Below, in pieces: positions 17,352 to 46,677 of a stretch of DNA of 64,000 nt. Source of the stretch: Desulfurococcales archaeon (GTDB lineage: Archaea > Thermoproteota > Thermoprotei_A > Sulfolobales > NBVN01); assembly GCA_027002995.1 (NCBI GenBank), contig JALWZB010000061.1, positions 3,000-66,999 of the forward strand, in the 5' to 3' direction. Below the pieces are notes generated by a model, which had not been told where the DNA came from, made no database searches, and saw only the letters and a list, made by a program, of their open reading frames with translations. A program made the translations under genes and the position numbers. How positions within the stretch are numbered: the stretch's first letter is position 1; each line of letters starts with the position of its first letter.

Positions 17352-18689
17352 TTATATTGGTGGCTTGGTTAGATTTACTTGTCTTATTAGTGCGTAGGGT
17401 GCTTTGGTTGGTGTTTCTACTTCCCACCACCTTATCTTGTGTGTTTCTTTGGTTGCTAGTTCCCAGTTTGATAGTAAGTTAGCGAATCTGTCCGCGATCC
17501 TTATTCTTCCTAGGTGCCCTACGATCTCGCCGTTCTTTACGAGTAGTGCGGCGTCCCTGCTTACGGTTGAGAATATTCCTTCAACGTAGTTCTGTAGCCT
17601 GGTGTACCAGTTGTTGGTTATTATTATGCCGTTCCTTAATTCGCTGATTAGTTCCTCTTCACTCTTGACGTTGCCTGGAGCCACGTGTAGGTTCCATGGG
17701 GTTGGGAATAGCCACCCTGCATTGCCTGTTGATTCCGTGCCCATCTTCTTTGCTGTGCCTGTATTGTGCAGGATGTTTACGAGGACGCCGTCCTTGATTA
17801 TTGGTTTGTCCTTTGTTGGCACGCCCTCGTCGTCGAAGGCTGTTGACTCGGCTAATTCCGTGTCTCTTGGCGCGTCAATTATGGTTACGGCTTCCGAGCC
17901 TACCTTATCGCCTGGCTTGACCTTCATGAACATTGAGAAGCCCATCATTACCGCCATGGCTGAGGCCATCCAGCCTATCGTGTCGATTAGGTTCCCGATT
18001 ACTAACGGTGATAGGATGACATCGTACTTGCCTGGCGTGAAGTCTGCCTTACTGTTTGTTATGGTTGCGTACATCCCTGCACGCCTCCCCACCTCCCTTA
18101 ACGCGTTAATATCCAGTACCCTGCTCCCGTGGGCCCAGTGGCCGCTGAACTCACCCTTGAATGCCCTCAAGTACGCCTCAACTTCCGTGCCTTCCTCCAT
18201 TCCTCTGAATCCTTTGTTCGTGGCTAGCGCCTTAGTCATGCGGCCAAATACTAGTGTGCCGGCTACTCTCTCCGCGCCCTCCTTGAGTGCGGCGTCGATC
18301 ATTTCCTCCACATACTTGCCGGGTTCCTCCATGGCCTTAAGGACGTTCTGATCCACTAACCCCTCAAGGGGCTTGAACTCTGCTGGCTCGGGTAGTGGGG
18401 CGTAGATCTCGGAAGGCTCTAGCTTAGTTAGGATTTCACCAACGTTTCTTAACGCATTATCGACGGCGTCCGGGTCACTCACGGAGAGCTCCGTTGAGAA
18501 CACCCTGCCGTTCCTCGACACCAGCACCGACACCTTAGCGTCGATCCATGACTGCGTAACCGAGGGTTCGGTGTTCCATAGCTTAACCATCACGTAGTCG
18601 CGCTGCCTTACTAGGACCGCTACGTCGTCAAACCTTCCTTCGAGTCTCTTGAGTACGGACTCCGCTAACTCGAGCGCGGTTACCATCAC
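17352..18689 (-). CDS. pmbA: TldD/PmbA-family metalloprotease subunit (PmbA/TldE-like)
   Basis: 445 aa. It shows the family C-terminal pattern (GNAG, ITNNWYTR) and overlaps the tldD stop by 4 nt. Confidence 0.75.
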   Translation of the reverse strand: MMVTALELAESVLKRLEGRFDDVAVLVRQRDYVMVKLWNTEPSVTQSWIDAKVSVLVSRNGRVFSTELSVSDPDAVDNALRNVGEILTKLEPSEIYAPLPEPAEFKPLEGLVDQNVLKAMEEPGKYVEEMIDAALKEGAERVAGTLVFGRMTKALATNKGFRGMEEGTEVEAYLRAFKGEFSGHWAHGSRVLDINALREVGRRAGMYATITNSKADFTPGKYDVILSPLVIGNLIDTIGWMASAMAVMMGFSMFMKVKPGDKVGSEAVTIIDAPRDTELAESTAFDDEGVPTKDKPIIKDGVLVNILHNTGTAKKMGTESTGNAGWLFPTPWNLHVAPGNVKSEEELISELRNGIIITNNWYTRLQNYVEGIFSTVSRDAALLVKNGEIVGHLGRIRIADRFANLLSNWELATKETHKIRWWEVETPTKAPYALIRQVNLTKPPI

Positions 18690-20182
18690 GCGATCACCCC
18701 CAACCTTATCTTAGCTAGCCTCACGTCAGGGCCTCCAAACCATACGGGGACGCCCTGCGGTGGTTCACCCTTCCCACACGTTCCTGGGTAGAATCTCAGG
18801 TGCTTGTCGACGCCCACGATGTTGCTGTAGAAGCCCTTGGTAGTGATCTCGAGCACTGGGTTCCTGACGGGCTCGGCTAACTCGCCGTTCCTTATCATGT
18901 ATGCTTCGAGGCCCACGTATCTCTGGTTCCACCGCATGTCGTCGATGTTCCACTCCATGTAGGACTTTATGAACACCCCTAACTTGATGTCCTCTATTAG
19001 TTCCTCGAAGCTCATGTCCCCTGGCTTGAGGTACGTGTTGCTCATCCTTATGATGGGTTCTGAGGCGTAATCCATTGCCCTGGCTGCTGCGTTGCTCGAG
19101 GTGCCCATGAGTTTCGCCGTGTGTCTGTTGTGGAGGGGCTCGTAGATGATGCCTTCCTTGTAGAGGTACCTGGGCCTGGCCGGGACGCCCTCGTCGTCGA
19201 AGAGGTAGTAGCCGTTACTGCCCGGTATCGTGGGGTCTTCGATGACGGTGGCATACTTCGTCCCTATCCTATACTTACCTATCATGTCCGGCTTGACGAA
19301 TGACTCGCCTGCCTGCGCGGCTTCCCTCCCGAGCATCCTGTCAGCCTCCATAGGGTGCCCGGCTGACTCATGCACGAGTAGGCCGACGACCTCTGAACCA
19401 ACGACAACGTCAATGGACTCCTTCGGTGGCTCAACACCCTTAAGGAATACTTTCTCTAGGTTCCTTACCTCCTCACTCACGACCTCCTCTAGGCGCCACG
19501 AATCAATGAGTTCCGCGCCTCCGGAAGCCTCCTTCTCGATAGTTCTCTGAAGCGTTCCCTTCTGTGGGTGGGCTAGGACGAAGTTAATGAATGCCGTTAC
19601 GCGTGGAACGACTGAGTGAATTGCTGCACCGTCCGAATTAATCACTAACTTCTCCTGAAGGCGCGTACCGGCCTGAAACATCACGGCGGGAACCTTAACC
19701 TCCTTTACCGACGAGTTTATTGTTTCGGTAAGCTTCTTGCCGAGTTCTGTGAGTGTCTCAGCCGTTAGGTCGCCTAGGGGCCTCTTCACGGCGACCTCGT
19801 AGGATGCCCTTCCAACCCTCTCGTCGCTGAACTCTATCGGCGTTTTTCTGAGACTTGCTGTGGCCCTAGCCCTAGTGATTGCCGCCATGATAGCGCGTTC
19901 AACGCCCTCCCTAGTTAGGGTGTTTGTTGCGGCGAAACCTAATGATCCATTAATTATTACCCGTACCCCGATACCTTCACGCACCTCGCTACCGACACCG
20001 ACAGTGCGTGCGTTCCTGAGGATGACACCTGACGTGACGTCGCGCTGATACCTGGCTTCGGCGTAGGAGGCGCCAGCTTCCAGGGCTTTATCAACCGCCC
20101 ATTGAAGCAGGCCTTCATCTAACGCGGTCAAAAGTTCACCCAATTTACATAGCTGGCTAATGATAATAAAGGTTCGACTCAA
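18686..20182 (-). CDS. tldD: TldD-family metalloprotease
   Basis: 498 aa. It has the HESAGHPMEADR zinc motif (HExxxH) and GTSSNAAARA. Confidence 0.8.
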   Translation of the reverse strand: MSRTFIIISQLCKLGELLTALDEGLLQWAVDKALEAGASYAEARYQRDVTSGVILRNARTVGVGSEVREGIGVRVIINGSLGFAATNTLTREGVERAIMAAITRARATASLRKTPIEFSDERVGRASYEVAVKRPLGDLTAETLTELGKKLTETINSSVKEVKVPAVMFQAGTRLQEKLVINSDGAAIHSVVPRVTAFINFVLAHPQKGTLQRTIEKEASGGAELIDSWRLEEVVSEEVRNLEKVFLKGVEPPKESIDVVVGSEVVGLLVHESAGHPMEADRMLGREAAQAGESFVKPDMIGKYRIGTKYATVIEDPTIPGSNGYYLFDDEGVPARPRYLYKEGIIYEPLHNRHTAKLMGTSSNAAARAMDYASEPIIRMSNTYLKPGDMSFEELIEDIKLGVFIKSYMEWNIDDMRWNQRYVGLEAYMIRNGELAEPVRNPVLEITTKGFYSNIVGVDKHLRFYPGTCGKGEPPQGVPVWFGGPDVRLAKIRLGVIA

Positions 20183-20201: not shown

Positions 20202-20663
20202 TTAACCCTTGCATTGCTTAATTAATTTAGACACCTTACTCAAGTACCTAGCAACCTTAACGCTCTCCTTCGGAACCTCGACCACGCCCTCCCCCTTAGA
20301 GATGACGAAGTGCCTCCTTCGTATATCACCTTCAAGCCCCGTTACTTTGAAAGCTTCCTCAACCATGAAGTGCAACTGAACACAGTGGGGTGAACCGTCA
20401 ACCGTCAGCACAGCAACTTCTTTAAGGAAGTCCCTACACCTGCGTAGTATCCCGGCTAATTTAAACCCAACCATGTTGATATGTTCCTCCTCGAGGCAGA
20501 CCGAGAACACTGAGTACCCCGCGTTTTTGAAGGGTAACAGCGCTTCACTATGTTCGACCTCGACGCACCTACCTATTATCAACATTTTATCGCTTGAGCG
20601 AATCCTCTTGGACCTAGCGTTGCAGTCTATTAACTTAGGCGTGCTGTAGGGCATTTGAGGCAC
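20202..20663 (-). CDS. hypothetical Cys/His-rich protein
   Basis: 153-aa ORF with conserved-looking Cys/His residues (GRCVEVEHSE, SVCLEEEH, GSPHCVQLH). Family not recognised. Confidence 0.45.
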   Translation of the reverse strand: MPQMPYSTPKLIDCNARSKRIRSSDKMLIIGRCVEVEHSEALLPFKNAGYSVFSVCLEEEHINMVGFKLAGILRRCRDFLKEVAVLTVDGSPHCVQLHFMVEEAFKVTGLEGDIRRRHFVISKGEGVVEVPKESVKVARYLSKVSKLIKQCKG

Positions 20664-20758
20664 CTTTGACCATATTTAAAATACGTACTCACCTTAAATG
20701 CCGTAACTCATGATGGTAAGGTACTTTGGCGCTCATACAAAAGAAGACTTCGAGAACT

Positions 20759-22804
20759 ATGAAGGTCAGGGGAGGACTCTCGAAAATCGTGGGCACCGTG
20801 CTCCTCATGCTAGTGACTGTGTCTATGGGTGTAGTGCTATATGCATACATGCAGAACAAGACATCATCTAGTGTGGGGAATACCTTACCGCAAGTGAGGG
20901 TGGGGTTCGCCACCATAGAGAAGTACTTCTGGCGAGGTGATCTGGTAGTGTATGTTGCTAATCATGGTGACCAGGAGCTTAAGCTTGACAAAGCTTACTT
21001 AAGGGTGGGTAATGAATGGGTAGCCGTTAAGTCAAGCCTACCTACGTCAATACCGCCACATAGTAGCAAGGCAGTCATAGTGTCCACAGTAAACATACCT
21101 CCAGGAAATCATGAGTTGCGGCTGGCCGGGCCCGGCGGATACGTGGGGAGCATAGTTGACCCACCCGGTTCAGCCATCATGGACTATATAGGCACAATAA
21201 CGCCCGCAGCAACTATTAACTCCCCGATAACGCCCGCATCGGGTTTCCTAGCGAAGTTCTACGACATAAGGGGGCTAGAGAAGGTTCCCTCAGTAAATGA
21301 AATCTTAGGACTTGGTGATGACCGGTTACTTGATGAACGCGTTGTTCAGCAAATACGTTTCAGCGATACGGTTAGTGGCCTACCTAGGTGGGGTCTTCCT
21401 CAAACAGACAGGTTTGCCGCTGTCTTCGAGGGCGTCGTGAGTGTTAAGGAGAAATCAGTGCTGAAGATAACCGCAGTCAGTGACGATGGCGTTTACATCA
21501 CCGTTGATGGGAAGGTAGTAATTAATGGGTGGCGGCTTCAAGCAGCAACTAGGTATGAAGGAAGCATTACATTATCTCCCGGAAACCATGAGGTAGTTGT
21601 AGTTTACTTTGAGAACTACGGGATAGCCACGCTAGAGGTGAGCCTAGACCTCGTGCCTGTGACCCAGAATGCATTTAGCGTGATCAGTATCACGGGGAAG
21701 TATTATGACACAACAGATTACAATCCCTCCAATCCCGACTACAGGAAAGTACTCAATGATGAACTACCAACGAAGTTCTTTGAGGATACTGAGCAAGCAA
21801 TCGACTATACCGACCATTCGGCCTACGGAGGTAAGCCATGGCCCTTCACGAACACGTACAGAGACGTCAATTGCTTCGCCGCGCACTGGGTAGTTAAAGT
21901 CCAAGTCAACGTGCCGGGCATGTATGAGGTGAACGCAATAAGCGATGACGGGATAGTTATCTTACTGGACAACAGCAAGCAGGTAATATCTGACTGGACC
22001 CTACATGGCCCAAGGCAATATACACAGGTAATTTACCTCTCTAAAGGAACTCACAGGTTCGACATAGCGTATTACGAGAACTACGGCATCGCAAGGGCTT
22101 ACTTTAACTTAAGCTTCATCGGTAACACTAACCAAGTGGTTAGTGGAGGATGGGAGGCGGTAGTATATGATTTAACTCACTACACCTGGGGCTCCCTAAA
22201 CCTTAACGAACTCTACGACAACATAATTCAAGGGAAGTTCCCCGTAGTCGGGAAGTACAGGGTCGACTACATAGACTTTACCGACCACGCAGTATACGGT
22301 GGTAGTCCATGGTTCTTCAGCGGTCACGGAACTGACTACTTCGCAGTGGTCTTCAAGACAACGATTAATGTCAAGGATTACATAGTGCTAAATATAAACG
22401 TGTATACTGACGACGGCACGAAGGTGTTGGTAGATGGAAACGTTGTTCTAGACGCTTGGCGCCTACAGTCGCCCCATCACTATTCCGCAGGGATAGCGCT
22501 AGCACCAGGCAGTCACGAGATAGCGGTGGTTTACTTTGAGAGGACAGGTATTGCGAGACTTAAGGTCGACCTATACCCCTCAGCACCCGTGTATGCCGGG
22601 CGCAAGGATGTATTCACACTCGTGATCAATGACCCCAGCGCCGTCCCCAAAGATTTCAGAATCACACTTATTAATGAGAAGGGCATCATTGGTGAGAAGG
22701 AAGTACATATTACAGGAACGTCTAAACAAGTCATTACGATCAAGGTTAAGGGAGATTCCCTGCCGACGAGGGGAGCAATAGTTATCTGGGGAGGGAGAAA
22801 GTAG
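20759..22804 (+). CDS. surface protein with archaeal class III (pilin-like) signal peptide and three PA14-like domains
   Basis: The ORF is open from 20726 (TTG), but the likely start is the ATG at 20759, giving MKVRGGLSKIVGTVLLMLVTVSMGVVLYAY (KG/RG motif plus hydrophobic helix). Three repeats follow the pattern F-A-A/V-x-F/W..(V/I)SDDG..(V/L)DG..V(I/L)..W.....Y.....L..G.HE(V/I).V.YFE..G.A.L.V.L. Confidence 0.8.
   Translation: MKVRGGLSKIVGTVLLMLVTVSMGVVLYAYMQNKTSSSVGNTLPQVRVGFATIEKYFWRGDLVVYVANHGDQELKLDKAYLRVGNEWVAVKSSLPTSIPPHSSKAVIVSTVNIPPGNHELRLAGPGGYVGSIVDPPGSAIMDYIGTITPAATINSPITPASGFLAKFYDIRGLEKVPSVNEILGLGDDRLLDERVVQQIRFSDTVSGLPRWGLPQTDRFAAVFEGVVSVKEKSVLKITAVSDDGVYITVDGKVVINGWRLQAATRYEGSITLSPGNHEVVVVYFENYGIATLEVSLDLVPVTQNAFSVISITGKYYDTTDYNPSNPDYRKVLNDELPTKFFEDTEQAIDYTDHSAYGGKPWPFTNTYRDVNCFAAHWVVKVQVNVPGMYEVNAISDDGIVILLDNSKQVISDWTLHGPRQYTQVIYLSKGTHRFDIAYYENYGIARAYFNLSFIGNTNQVVSGGWEAVVYDLTHYTWGSLNLNELYDNIIQGKFPVVGKYRVDYIDFTDHAVYGGSPWFFSGHGTDYFAVVFKTTINVKDYIVLNINVYTDDGTKVLVDGNVVLDAWRLQSPHHYSAGIALAPGSHEIAVVYFERTGIARLKVDLYPSAPVYAGRKDVFTLVINDPSAVPKDFRITLINEKGIIGEKEVHITGTSKQVITIKVKGDSLPTRGAIVIWGGRK
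21242..22573 (+). repeat. three tandem PA14-like modules (protein-level repeats) inside the 20759-22804 gene
   Basis: The modules lie at about nt 21242-21649, 21692-22117 and 22151-22573. Each ends in ..VVYFENYGIATLEVSL / IAYYENYGIARAYFNLSF / VVYFERTGIARLKVDL. Confidence 0.7.
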
Positions 22805-43388: not shown

Positions 43389-46199
43389 TCACGATGTGGG
43401 TATGACCCAGACTTCAGAGGAGCCTGAATCCCTAACCAGTATTAACGCCCCATTATAGTACTCCATCCTATCACCGTAGCCTATCGGGGCTGGGAGGAAG
43501 AGAACAGGTACGTTAGTGAAGTTAGCGTACGTTGGGTTAACTTTATACAGGCTACCGCCCTCCAACATCAGCCATAAGTACTTCCCGTCATAGGCTAACC
43601 CGACGTTACTTAAGCCAGGCATGAGGTTAGCTGTGTTGGACGGTGGTACGGAGGTGCTGTTAGTGAACGGGTTAACGGCAACCAGCACCGCGGCCTTAGA
43701 CGTAGTGTTCTGAAGGATCGTGTACACCCTAGTGTCCACAACAGCCGAGACCGTGTAGGGAGAGGAAACATTCAGGCTGCGGGAAGTAAAGCTAATCAAC
43801 CAAGCACCTCCAGAGGGATACGCCGTCAAGTTATACACGCAGAACGACTGATTACCAACACCAGGCAAAACAGCCAAGTACGTCCTACCAGAGACTGAAT
43901 CATGCACAACCTCAGCCCTAACACCCCCACCTAAGGAGGCCCTACACGCGTCAGTAACGAAAACAGGTGGAGCCGAAGGATTAAGCAAGTCCAACCTATA
44001 TACCCCGCTTCCATTAACTAAGAACAAGGAGTGACTTACGTAACCATCATAAGCAATGTCAGCAGAACCATTAAACACCGTACCAAGCACATTTATAGTC
44101 TCCCAATACAACAGCGTAACACTACCCGGAGCCACACCAGACAACTTAAACACGTCAATATAACTAGTGCCACCCTCACCAACCAATAACACATCCTGAG
44201 ACACCGGAACCCAAACATCAGGGAACGCATTCAGGCAATCAACCTGCAGGGTGAAGGAAGAATCATCATAGGCAAGCAACTCAAGAACCACAGTACCATT
44301 AGTAGGATTAACCAGCGACGCAGGTAAACCAGTAACATTCAACCTAGCCCCACCAGTGGCGTTGTAAACCTTAACAAAAGTACCTAATGACCAGTCATAA
44401 GCATAAACACAAAAGACAGTAGTGCCTAAACTCGACTGGAGAGCAACACTCACAGTAGTTGATGAGACATTATTGCCAGACACGCTAATAGTGCCACTTA
44501 AGTTAACCGAGGCCCTAACCTCCAACTTAGAGGCATATTTTTGTAAAATACTATAAACATCACCGCCAACTATTATCGAGAAAATCCTTGAAGTAACTAT
44601 AGCTCCCGTAGTATCATACACAACTATCATGCCATTACGGATAATAGGTTGCCTGATAACATTAACTGAAGCATAGCCAGACGCATTAAAAACTGCACTG
44701 CCTACGAGATAGCCAGATGCATTGTAGATACTGACATTATAGCCAGAAAAAGTCGTAGGTGCCGTTATATTCACCCAAAGAGGGGAAGCATTAATAGTCA
44801 TCACCACCTCGTCGAAAGCTGTCACGGCGTACCAGGCTCCTAAACCGAGTTCTGTAGGGAAGAAGTAGCTGTCCGAAACAGCAATGCTAGCTAGATAGTT
44901 TCCATTTACATCATATAGCGTTGAATTAAGAACTCCCCGATTAGTCCTCAATGCCAGAACATAAAACCACTCACCTAATTGGGGCTCTGATGCAGCTGGT
45001 ATGGAGCTATATAGTATCACCCTTGAGTGATTATTTATTGACGCAGCATATACGTTATTCAAAGTACTACCTGGTGGTAGAGGAGGAGGAGGCGGAGGTC
45101 CCGGTCCTCCACCTACAAACGTGAGGGTGATGTTCTCTCCTAGGGCTCCAAGCTCATAGAACCAAGTATTATTTAACTGGAGTAGGCCCGACGTACCTAG
45201 ATTATAATCAAGAACCCATCCCCCAGGCAGGATGAAGGAGTTATAAAGGTAGCTTACCCTGCTAATATTAAGCTTAAGAAGCGCATATATGTTGCTTGCA
45301 GATAGATTCACTACTGATAAGCTTTTCGTAATATTTACGATTGCAATGTATTCTCCATTAGAAGAATCTGTTTGTTCGACGTAGTGTCCTATAGGGTTCC
45401 AGACCCATGTTCCATTTACTGCCGTTAGATTTCCGTCGATAAATGGATTATTTAGGAAGTCATCGTAAAATATTGCTGTTCTCTTTTCTCCGGCTATTAC
45501 GTAGCTTGGGATTGGTGTTGCTGTTATGTTTTGGTTGTCTGCGTAGTTTAGGTTTGTTGCTATCCCTGTTGCTGTTCCTGTTAGTGCTGTGTATGCGTAT
45601 ACGTTTCCTGCTCTTGTTTGTGGTGTTGGTATTGTTGCTGTTCCTGCCCATGTTACTGTTCCTGCCCCGGCTATTCTTGGCAGATACGTGTTTGCTAGGC
45701 TTGCCTGTACTCCTGGTAGGGTTGTTGCGTTCGTTGCTGGTATTGGGTATGTTGCTTTGAAGGCGTTGCCTAGCTCCGATATTAGCGTTATTTCGTAGGT
45801 TGATACCGGGCTTAGGGGATATGGGGTCATTATGGTTAGTGTTGTCCTCGTTTGTGGTGCTACGTATTTTTCAGGGGTTATTTTGCCTACTATTTTTACG
45901 GTGTTGTTTCTTATGATGTAGTTTACGAGTACTATTGGTTGTGTGCCGTCGTTTGTTACGGTGATTGTTACTGAGGTTCCGGTTATTGTTATGGAGTTTA
46001 TTGTTAGTTTCTCCTGTTGCTTCTTGAGGAGGAGCTGGTTTGCTCTTATTACGTTGGATGTTGTTGTCGCCATCCTCTGCAGTATGAATGTAAAGGTCAA
46101 GAGAAATGCTAGGAGAGTTGCTAGTATGAATATTGCCGCTATTATCGTTGAAACGGCTTTCCTTCCTTTGCTTTTCTTACGTGGACGCATCTTGATCAC
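43389..46199 (-). CDS. giant surface protein with class III (pilin-like) signal peptide
   Basis: 936 aa. The N-terminus reads KKSKGRKAVSTIIAAIFILATLLAFLLTF. It has dozens of NxS/T sequons and a poly-Pro hinge GGGPGPPPPPPLPPGS (around nt 45065-45110). A GTG or ATG start lies 1-10 nt after the upstream pilin-like gene, with GAGGTGA overlapping that gene's stop. Confidence 0.75.
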   Translation of the reverse strand: MIKMRPRKKSKGRKAVSTIIAAIFILATLLAFLLTFTFILQRMATTTSNVIRANQLLLKKQQEKLTINSITITGTSVTITVTNDGTQPIVLVNYIIRNNTVKIVGKITPEKYVAPQTRTTLTIMTPYPLSPVSTYEITLISELGNAFKATYPIPATNATTLPGVQASLANTYLPRIAGAGTVTWAGTATIPTPQTRAGNVYAYTALTGTATGIATNLNYADNQNITATPIPSYVIAGEKRTAIFYDDFLNNPFIDGNLTAVNGTWVWNPIGHYVEQTDSSNGEYIAIVNITKSLSVVNLSASNIYALLKLNISRVSYLYNSFILPGGWVLDYNLGTSGLLQLNNTWFYELGALGENITLTFVGGGPGPPPPPPLPPGSTLNNVYAASINNHSRVILYSSIPAASEPQLGEWFYVLALRTNRGVLNSTLYDVNGNYLASIAVSDSYFFPTELGLGAWYAVTAFDEVVMTINASPLWVNITAPTTFSGYNVSIYNASGYLVGSAVFNASGYASVNVIRQPIIRNGMIVVYDTTGAIVTSRIFSIIVGGDVYSILQKYASKLEVRASVNLSGTISVSGNNVSSTTVSVALQSSLGTTVFCVYAYDWSLGTFVKVYNATGGARLNVTGLPASLVNPTNGTVVLELLAYDDSSFTLQVDCLNAFPDVWVPVSQDVLLVGEGGTSYIDVFKLSGVAPGSVTLLYWETINVLGTVFNGSADIAYDGYVSHSLFLVNGSGVYRLDLLNPSAPPVFVTDACRASLGGGVRAEVVHDSVSGRTYLAVLPGVGNQSFCVYNLTAYPSGGAWLISFTSRSLNVSSPYTVSAVVDTRVYTILQNTTSKAAVLVAVNPFTNSTSVPPSNTANLMPGLSNVGLAYDGKYLWLMLEGGSLYKVNPTYANFTNVPVLFLPAPIGYGDRMEYYNGALILVRDSGSSEVWVIPTS

Positions 46200-46200
46200 C

Positions 46201-46677
46201 TCAGGTAGTAGTTATGTACGTGAATAACTTGACCTCGTTTGGTCCAGTCAATATTACTTCGTAGGTGTTTCCTGAGGCTAAGGTGTACCTTATTACTAAT
46301 TCGTTCACGCCGCTTGGTAATTGGGTTCCGAATCCTTGGATTAGGTCTGTCTTAGGTATCAATTGCTTGTTGATGTACGCCGTATCTATTACTACTGGAG
46401 CGCTGTCGTTGCTTACGTATACGAAGATATGTATTGTTGCGTCTGTTGAGTTGTAGTAGGCATCAACTATGCTTGCCTGGAGCTGGGCTACGTTGTTGAG
46501 TCTTTCGAGATCCTCGCTTAACCTCCTGTATTGAGCGTCCATTGCTGATTTGGCTGCTAGGTAGAAGGTCGTGCCTACGGTTACTGCTATGAGTATGAGT
46601 AGGGTTAGGGAAATAATTTCGGAGACGCCCTTCCTTGCCCAACGCTTGTTTAGCTTGGTCTTGGTTAGTGGCATCAT
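46201..46677 (-). CDS. archaeal type IV pilin-like protein (class III signal peptide)
   Basis: 158 aa. It reads RWARKGVSEIISLTLLILIAVTVGTTFYLAA followed by a small beta-rich domain. A TATA-like cttaaatttag lies at 46709-46719. Confidence 0.7.
   Translation of the reverse strand: MMPLTKTKLNKRWARKGVSEIISLTLLILIAVTVGTTFYLAAKSAMDAQYRRLSEDLERLNNVAQLQASIVDAYYNSTDATIHIFVYVSNDSAPVVIDTAYINKQLIPKTDLIQGFGTQLPSGVNELVIRYTLASGNTYEVILTGPNEVKLFTYITTT

Follow-up and report, generated by a model that had tools for sequence, protein, structure and literature searches.

A gene at positions 20759-22804 (+) of a 64,000 nucleotide stretch of DNA from an uncultured Desulfurococcales archaeon, located on contig C61 of its genome and hereafter called the window, encodes a protein in which an archaeal type IV pilin module is followed by three PA14 domains. 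The protein is interpreted as a modular, probably minor or tip, archaeal pilin working as a calcium-dependent glycan adhesin, with a probability of about 0.6; its cleavage, polymerisation and ligand are inferred. The reading frame is uninterrupted, has a product of 681 amino acids and is kept in the homologues. An initial annotation of the DNA had placed a pilin-type N-terminus and PA14-like repeats at these positions, and both are present in this conserved frame.

Judged from sequence comparisons and structure models, residues 1-135 are a complete archaeal type IV pilin, in which a leader of class III type precedes a hydrophobic alpha-1 helix and a beta-sandwich. When a profile of the protein family was compared with the PDB, the Pyrobaculum calidifontis chain 8FK7, which is a type IV pilin (PMC10334743), was matched with an E value of 3.4e-13 along the whole module, leader and globular domain included (profile positions 5-133, chain positions 4-138), and the N-termini of the Iho670 and H. 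volcanii pilins were matched as well. The full-chain AlphaFold model has a predicted local distance difference test score (pLDDT) of 86, with a helix at residues 9-42 and strands at 51-133, and a model of the N-terminal 160 residues (pLDDT 79) has a helix at 4-34. The alpha-1 helix is 34 residues long in the models and is followed by the beta-sandwich. Foldseek with the N-terminal model gave 8fk7 as the first match and the S. acidocaldarius Aap pilin 8q30 as the second; 6w8u and 8fj5 also ranked in the top ten. Within the same genome, BLAST aligned residues 3-127 with a 157 amino acid pilin encoded beside a secretion ATPase (C34:1354-1827, E 9e-8) and with a 264 amino acid pilin-like protein (C125:2237-3031, E 1e-6), and the alignment of own-genome pilins takes in the end of the sandwich, PPGN-x-x-x-x-x-G-x-GG. 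The helix, residues 7-42 (20777..20884), is delimited by AlphaFold and by alignment to 8FK7, Iho670 and the own-genome pilins, and the sandwich, residues 43-135 (20885..21163), by the 8FK7 profile match, Foldseek and the same pilins. With the 8FK7 and Foldseek matches, the pilin-type N-terminus is a full pilin module and stronger than first claimed. The small beta domain reported behind it does exist, but it is the globular half of the pilin fold and not a spacer.

A search with the profile of the pilin module against 1.84 billion representatives gave 1137 proteins, and the best matches listed are mostly 135-160 amino acids long. The UpsA model NF046073 gave 26.6 bits over residues 6-105 of the window protein, with a cut-off of 130, and bona fide small pilins of the genome score 24.6-55 bits on the same model. 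On these scores the similarity is that of a generic crenarchaeal pilin and the protein is not an UpsA orthologue.

The predicted class III signal peptide is MKVRGG (residues 1-6, 20759..20776). The N-terminal sequence MKVRGGLSKIVGTVLLMLVTVSMGVVLY is as initially given, and its pattern is kept in 11 full-length homologues. The cleavage-type motif is RGG/LSK in the window protein, and [KR]-x-G-[LIV]-[ST] is conserved among the homologues. In the family profile L7-S8 fall on the start (VSPVIA...) of the deposited Iho670 chain 5KYH from Ignicoccus, and the cut region also aligns with KTKG/LEPIV of pilin 8FK7; on the basis of these alignments a cut between Gly6 and Leu7 is predicted. The ATG at 20759, taken as the start from the outset, is supported by an orthologue of 74% identity, in which the frame is closed by a stop 7 codons before the corresponding ATG. 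A start at the alternative TTG at 20726 would merely add eleven residues to the charged leader.

The pilin is joined to the first PA14 domain by a conserved structured linker, residues 136-160 (21164..21238), with invariant G137, G145 and S155. Its pLDDT is about 90 in the full model and 46-57 when the first PA14 domain is left out, and the linker probably packs on this domain in view of that drop.

The PA14 part has three repeats, as originally described. Pfam PA14 (PF07691) was matched with 54.4 bits and an E value of 1.6e-14 in three stretches (gathering cut-off 24), and the reported end strands are found: YFENYGIA in repeat 1, YYENYGIA in repeat 2 and YFERTGIA in repeat 3. The repeats align over their full length with pairwise identities of 30-37%. 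Repeat 1 comprises residues 161-303 (21239..21667), with the best Pfam stretch at 215-305, an Asp-Asp pair at D242-D243 (21482-21487) and the motif Y283-F-E285. Repeats 2 and 3, both delimited by Pfam, repeat alignment and profile, comprise residues 304-455 (21668..22123), with D396-D397 (21944-21949) and Y438-Y-E440, and residues 456-609 (22124..22585), with D551-D552 (22409-22414) and Y592-F-E594. A profile of the repeats matched the RsgI3 PA14 dyad 6QE7 of Clostridium thermocellum with an E value of 1.7e-23, and it also matched the PA14 domains of RTX and Lap adhesins, the gliding adhesin RemA and a GH31 xylosidase. The fold comparison proposed in the initial annotation agrees with this: Foldseek with the full model placed 6qe7 and 6qdi at the top (E 1e-11 to 4e-10), followed by MpPA14 (6xa5), Cea1A (5a3l) and Epa1 (4afa), all three of which are sugar-bound lectin domains.

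In sugar-binding PA14 domains the Asp-cis-Asp pair of strand 5 coordinates a calcium ion, with its cis peptide stabilised by a conserved Tyr and with a polar Asn or Gln from calcium-binding loop 2 as the final ligand (PMC6852018). A module of the RsgI PA14 dyads that lacks the Asp pair binds neither calcium nor ligand, and binding by the C. clariflavum RsgI dyad requires calcium (PMC6852018). In the alignment to the hidden Markov model (HMM) the Asp-Asp pairs of the repeats correspond to D86/D87 of RsgI3 and the Tyr-x-Glu/Gln motif to Q130 of RsgI3 and to Y129-F-N131 of the C. clariflavum dyad; Glu stands in place of Asn/Gln in most repeats. Both parts of this signature are kept in all 36 PA14 repeats of 12 family members, and at the level of sequence the three modules therefore look like active calcium-type lectin sites.

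The chain ends with a C-terminal beta domain with no assigned role, residues 610-681 and the stop codon (22586..22804), with strands at 611-677 in the AlphaFold model and a pLDDT of about 85-92. It has no Pfam match, and in the homologues G642 is invariant and W677 nearly so. The idea that this domain is shared with the single-PA14 proteins of about 245 amino acids was rejected; only the PA14 part matches, and the C-terminal similarity has an E value of 0.69.

In the proposed mechanism the precursor would insert into the membrane and be cut after Gly6 by the PibD-type peptidase of the genome. A type IV pilus machine encoded on another contig would then lift the alpha-1 helix into the filament core beside a small major pilin, the closest paralogue being the 157 amino acid pilin on C34. 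Because of the extension of some 550 residues on its pilin module, the protein would be expected at the tip or sparsely incorporated. The PA14 modules would bind sugar hydroxyls through bound Ca2+ and so give multivalent adhesion to polysaccharide, biofilm matrix or glycosylated cell surfaces. Of the lectin on a pilus-like fibre that had been proposed, the pilin and PA14 halves are upheld by HMM, fold and profile comparisons, and adhesin function, cleavage and incorporation into a fibre are deduced from them.

Several points weigh against this interpretation. The signal was called a textbook one, and a motif and a hydrophobic helix are indeed there; the term is nevertheless too strong, since the window protein has Gly at -2, between Arg at -3 and Gly at -1 with Leu at +1 (most homologues have Lys or Arg at -2, and a K/R or K/R-x pattern precedes G/A in 10 of the 12 family sequences). 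The archaeal pilin N-terminal models suggested as a check did not recognise it either: TIGR02537 gave 12.6 bits, below its cut-off of 20, and the Pfam family Pilin_N (PF07790) had no match at E<=1 with the single sequence. No pilus genes are adjacent to the PA14 pilin in any of five contexts (the window and the homologues P0004, P0008, P0007 and P0010). Finally, Ca2+ occupancy and the cis geometry lie beyond what a sequence signature can tell. With respect to the curated models, Pilin_N is matched by just 7 of the 33 long proteins found in the module profile search, so that these models appear insensitive for this type of pilin; since they fail on the single sequence, the comparison of the family profile with the PDB was relied on instead.

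The machinery that the mechanism calls for is encoded elsewhere in the genome. A Peptidase_A24 (PibD-type) gene is found at C155:154814-155107, four T2SSE ATPases are on C34, C123 and C155 (two), and T2SSF platform matches are on C123 and C155. There is also an archaellum operon, and pilins occur together with ATPase and platform-like genes in two or more additional pilus loci; the ATPase-pilin pair on C34 is cut by the contig end. The advice to look for pibD and pilus loci outside the window was therefore well founded, and the earlier statement that the window holds no assembly ATPase or platform gene is correct, as none of the T2SSE or T2SSF matches of the genome lies on C61. Since none of the five contexts holds pilus genes, the assembly system cannot be assigned by synteny. 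In archaea it is common for pilin genes to stand alone, and different ATPase/platform pairs can serve them (PMC4858521).

A link between the PA14 cassette and a pilus locus is provided by P0013, a protein of 963 residues from a related metagenome. It is 48-59% identical along its length to a 710-residue class III-type protein of the C123 pilus locus, of which it is by sequence the orthologue, and its gene lies directly beside an intein-containing T2SSE ATPase. P0013 has an insert of 160 residues whose single PA14 domain shares 61% identity with repeat 2 of the PA14 pilin. This insert and the pilus locus in which it is found argue, at the level of sequence, that the PA14 cassette has moved between pilus-associated proteins in this group; if confirmed, P0013 would show that pilus proteins exchange an adhesion cassette by domain shuffling. 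The ATPase beside P0013 (L027:4245-7298, -) is 1017 amino acids long and its intein is recognised by Pfam Intein_splicing. The own genome likewise has two oversized secretion ATPases, of 1020 and 1046 amino acids (C123:20121-23183 and C155:172343-175483), which may also contain inteins.

The PA14 pilin is a conserved, sparsely distributed accessory gene, given that in 5.8 billion clustered proteins only eleven homologues of full length (34-97% identity) were found and that a six-frame search located it in 5 of the 201 genomes of the order, belonging to 3 of 74 genera. Wherever a copy comes from a genome, that genome was assembled from a metagenome and carries the label Desulfurococcales or Desulfurococcaceae. 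In the own genome (1.86 Mb, 98% complete) the six-frame search found PA14 in the PA14 pilin gene only. One 74% identical copy from the same genus (L024, G133:C171:8623-10656) has a single in-frame TGA within the scanned frame of 713 amino acids, which could indicate a pseudogene, a sequencing error or a stop just beyond the coding part.

A possible but rather unlikely alternative is a membrane-anchored or bindosome-like surface lectin, in which the protein is retained by its helix, cleaved or not, either in the membrane or within a short pseudopilus beneath the S-layer. The protein would then be comparable to the class III-signal sugar-binding proteins of Sulfolobales or to FlaF/FlaG, and the PA14 array would serve to capture sugars or to bind glycans of the S-layer and not to adorn a long pilus. 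The location of the gene outside any pilus locus and the non-canonical -2 position of the window copy are consistent with this, a motif of the GLSK type also heads predicted substrate-binding proteins of the own genome, for example MNRGGLSKVASAVIL on C144, and a pilin-like gene of the same window weakly matches the bindosome protein BasA. However, the pilin beta-sandwich is absent from the binding proteins of the genome, in contrast to the PA14 pilin, which has the whole fold and aligns with small filament pilins, and a related PA14 cassette occurs in the pilus-operon protein P0013. The pseudoperiplasm of Desulfurococcales is wide, so that a membrane-tethered chain of five domains may not reach ligands outside the cell.

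Other arrangements of the fibre are less probable still. It is improbable that Desulfurococcales pili use PA14 as an exchangeable adhesion module which, in this lineage, has been triplicated on a stand-alone pilin built in along the length of the filament and not just at its tip, giving a polyvalent calcium-dependent lectin fibre for the S-layer N-glycans of other cells or for insoluble polysaccharide. Ups pili recognise S-layer glycans of the same species, and such a lectin fibre, if real, would be the hyperthermophile counterpart of Ups-type glycan-coded cell-cell recognition; UpsA of Sulfolobales, to which the window module gives a weak model match, has no PA14 domain. That the protein is the major subunit of a fibre of its own, with three PA14 domains on every subunit in a thick polyvalent lectin filament, is very unlikely. 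The gene does stand alone with no small pilin adjoining, and large archaeal pilins such as the 303-residue Iho670 pilin (chain 5KYH) can form filaments, but an extension of 550 residues per subunit is far beyond any solved archaeal pilus among the profile and Foldseek matches listed, several small pilins beside the ATPases of the genome fit the major-pilin role, and the family is sparse, as would be expected for an accessory adhesin. Least probable of all is that the PA14 modules are rigid spacers or binders of a protein or mineral surface: PA14 also occurs in contexts with no shown sugar binding (toxin and enzyme matches), but a spacer is unlikely to need a signature kept in every repeat of sequences down to 34% identity, and in the RsgI PA14 dyads a module can no longer bind calcium or ligand once its Asp-Asp pair is lost (PMC6852018).

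The calcium-dependent adhesive pilin favoured here has its closest parallel in the bacterial modular pilins defined by Raynaud et al. 2021, in which PA14 (IPR011658) is among the carbohydrate-binding modules of the 15 most frequent architectures (PMC8179133). Studied examples are PilC of Streptococcus sanguinis and CofB of enterotoxigenic Escherichia coli (ETEC) (PMC8179133). Like PilB and PilC of S. sanguinis, for which a tip location is proposed (PMC8179133), the window protein has an N-terminal pilin module with a grafted binding module, and with a pilin module and a non-pilus module on one chain it has the modular-pilin layout. The bacterial proteins have the prepilin motif IPR012902 and a bacterial pilin fold, whereas the window protein has a PilA/UpsA-like archaeal pilin, three PA14 domains and an extra C-terminal domain and is not part of a pilus operon; no bacterial prepilin or methylation-motif model was found among its Pfam and NCBIfam results. 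It thus works like a modular pilin yet, with its archaeal pilin module, falls outside the bacterial set that was published. CofB of the ETEC type IVb pilus likewise combines a pilin module with extra beta domains presented at the tip (PMC6048534), but it is bacterial, has other extra domains and is encoded within a pilus operon, unlike the window gene.

For the two halves taken separately, 8FK7 is the closest solved relative of residues 1-135 by profile and fold and has the same leader, helix and sandwich, but it is a pilin of 144 amino acids with no extension, and the identity to the window protein in the Foldseek alignment is 18%. RsgI3 and RsgI4 (6QE7, 6QDI) have the same tandem PA14 modules, with a calcium site made of the Asp-cis-Asp pair and a polar residue, and bind polysaccharide (PMC6852018). 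They are bacterial membrane sensors, anti-sigma factors with two modules of which one is possibly inactive, whereas the window protein has three modules, all with the signature, on a pilin.

In archaea, two censuses of type IV filaments note class III-signal adhesin-like proteins and proteins with galactose-binding domains and mention neither PA14 nor lectins (PMC4858521, PMC13705601). The adhesin-like proteins (DUF2341/PilY-like; the galactose-binding-domain protein of the Epd locus of M. maripaludis) share with the window protein a pilin-type signal combined with adhesion-type domains and are predicted to act with type IV filaments, but are mostly encoded in pilus loci, unlike the window gene. 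The 33 long proteins with this pilin module at the N-terminus carry DUF2341 (10), CARDB (six), lamin-tail (four), ConA-like (two), H-type lectin (one) and pentaxin (one) domains. PA14 is found in two of the 33, both with the layout of three PA14 domains in about 680 amino acids that is typical of the window protein's family.

The protein is therefore a new archaeal triple-PA14 pilin of the modular-pilin kind and not a new class of system. The novelty is modest, because pilins with PA14 are already catalogued in bacteria (PMC8179133) and relatives of the pilin module carry other lectin-like domains; the novelty implied in the initial annotation was for the same reasons overstated. No paper combining PA14, pilin and archaea was found in the library searched. 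The adhesion of hyperthermophilic Crenarchaeota to substrates and to one another is known in molecular detail for a few Sulfolobales pili only, and the gene is a compact candidate with a pilus anchor and three apparently intact calcium-type lectin sites on one chain. If confirmed, it would extend the modular-pilin principle experimentally to archaea and provide thermostable PA14 lectins.

The PA14 pilin gene is flanked on one side by a divergent small gene and then a TldD/PmbA pair, and on the other side by a convergent acyl-CoA synthetase-type gene. A TATA-like element, ATATTTAAAATA (20672..20683, +), can be read within the divergent intergenic region of 95 nucleotides, and TTTAAAATA is retained in the relative at 97% identity (L016). 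The element is an uncertain candidate promoter of the PA14 pilin, and a role for the divergent upstream gene at 20202-20663 (-) is just as possible. Two N-glycosylation sequons are found in the protein where about four would be expected, which is uninformative. The TldD/PmbA metalloprotease pair (17352-20182, -) is divergent from the PA14 pilin with the one small gene between. Such a pair also adjoins the 40% identical homologue P0008, on the same strand and directly downstream (L011:10167-12823), and is not found beside P0007, though the flanks of P0007 are otherwise syntenic with those of P0008. This neighbourhood could be a coincidence or a functional link.

PA14 in other contexts is common in the order. 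It is present in 70 of the 201 genomes, mostly in open frames of about 215-320 amino acids. Ten translated frames (loci L028-L037, 213-264 amino acids; for example L028:1444-2169 and L032:1390-2184) have a single PA14 domain with up to 87 bits in Pfam and have neither an N-terminal signal nor a hydrophobic helix. An apparently cytoplasmic PA14 protein is widespread in these hyperthermophilic archaea. Larger PA14 reading frames in two genomes (G128 and G031) were considered as pilin-PA14 fusions and rejected; they encode a GH3 glucosidase with an inserted PA14 domain and a multi-pass membrane protein with two. All five genomes with the PA14 pilin lack the PA14 protein of about 245 amino acids, but with a chance expectation of about 0.13 this is not significant, and no mutual exclusion is claimed.

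A second pair of pilin-signal genes is found in the window at 43389-46677, about 20 kb from the PA14 pilin. A pilin-like gene for 158 amino acids (46201-46677, -), with the N-terminus RKG/VSEIISLTLLILIAV, lies directly upstream of a gene for a protein of 936 amino acids (43389-46199, -) that has a pilin-type N-terminus and is rich in N-x-S/T sequons. The 158 amino acid protein matches BasA with 19.8 bits and UpsB with 19.0 bits, both below the cut-off. Elsewhere in the genome, the motif R-x-[GA]-[LI]-S-[KR] followed by a hydrophobic stretch heads large Thr/Ser-rich secreted proteins (C144:5946-7151, C44:2730-5066, C146:974-2311 and C122:3320-4975). These resemble the class III-signal substrate-binding proteins of Sulfolobales, and by this analogy suggest a bindosome-like export route.

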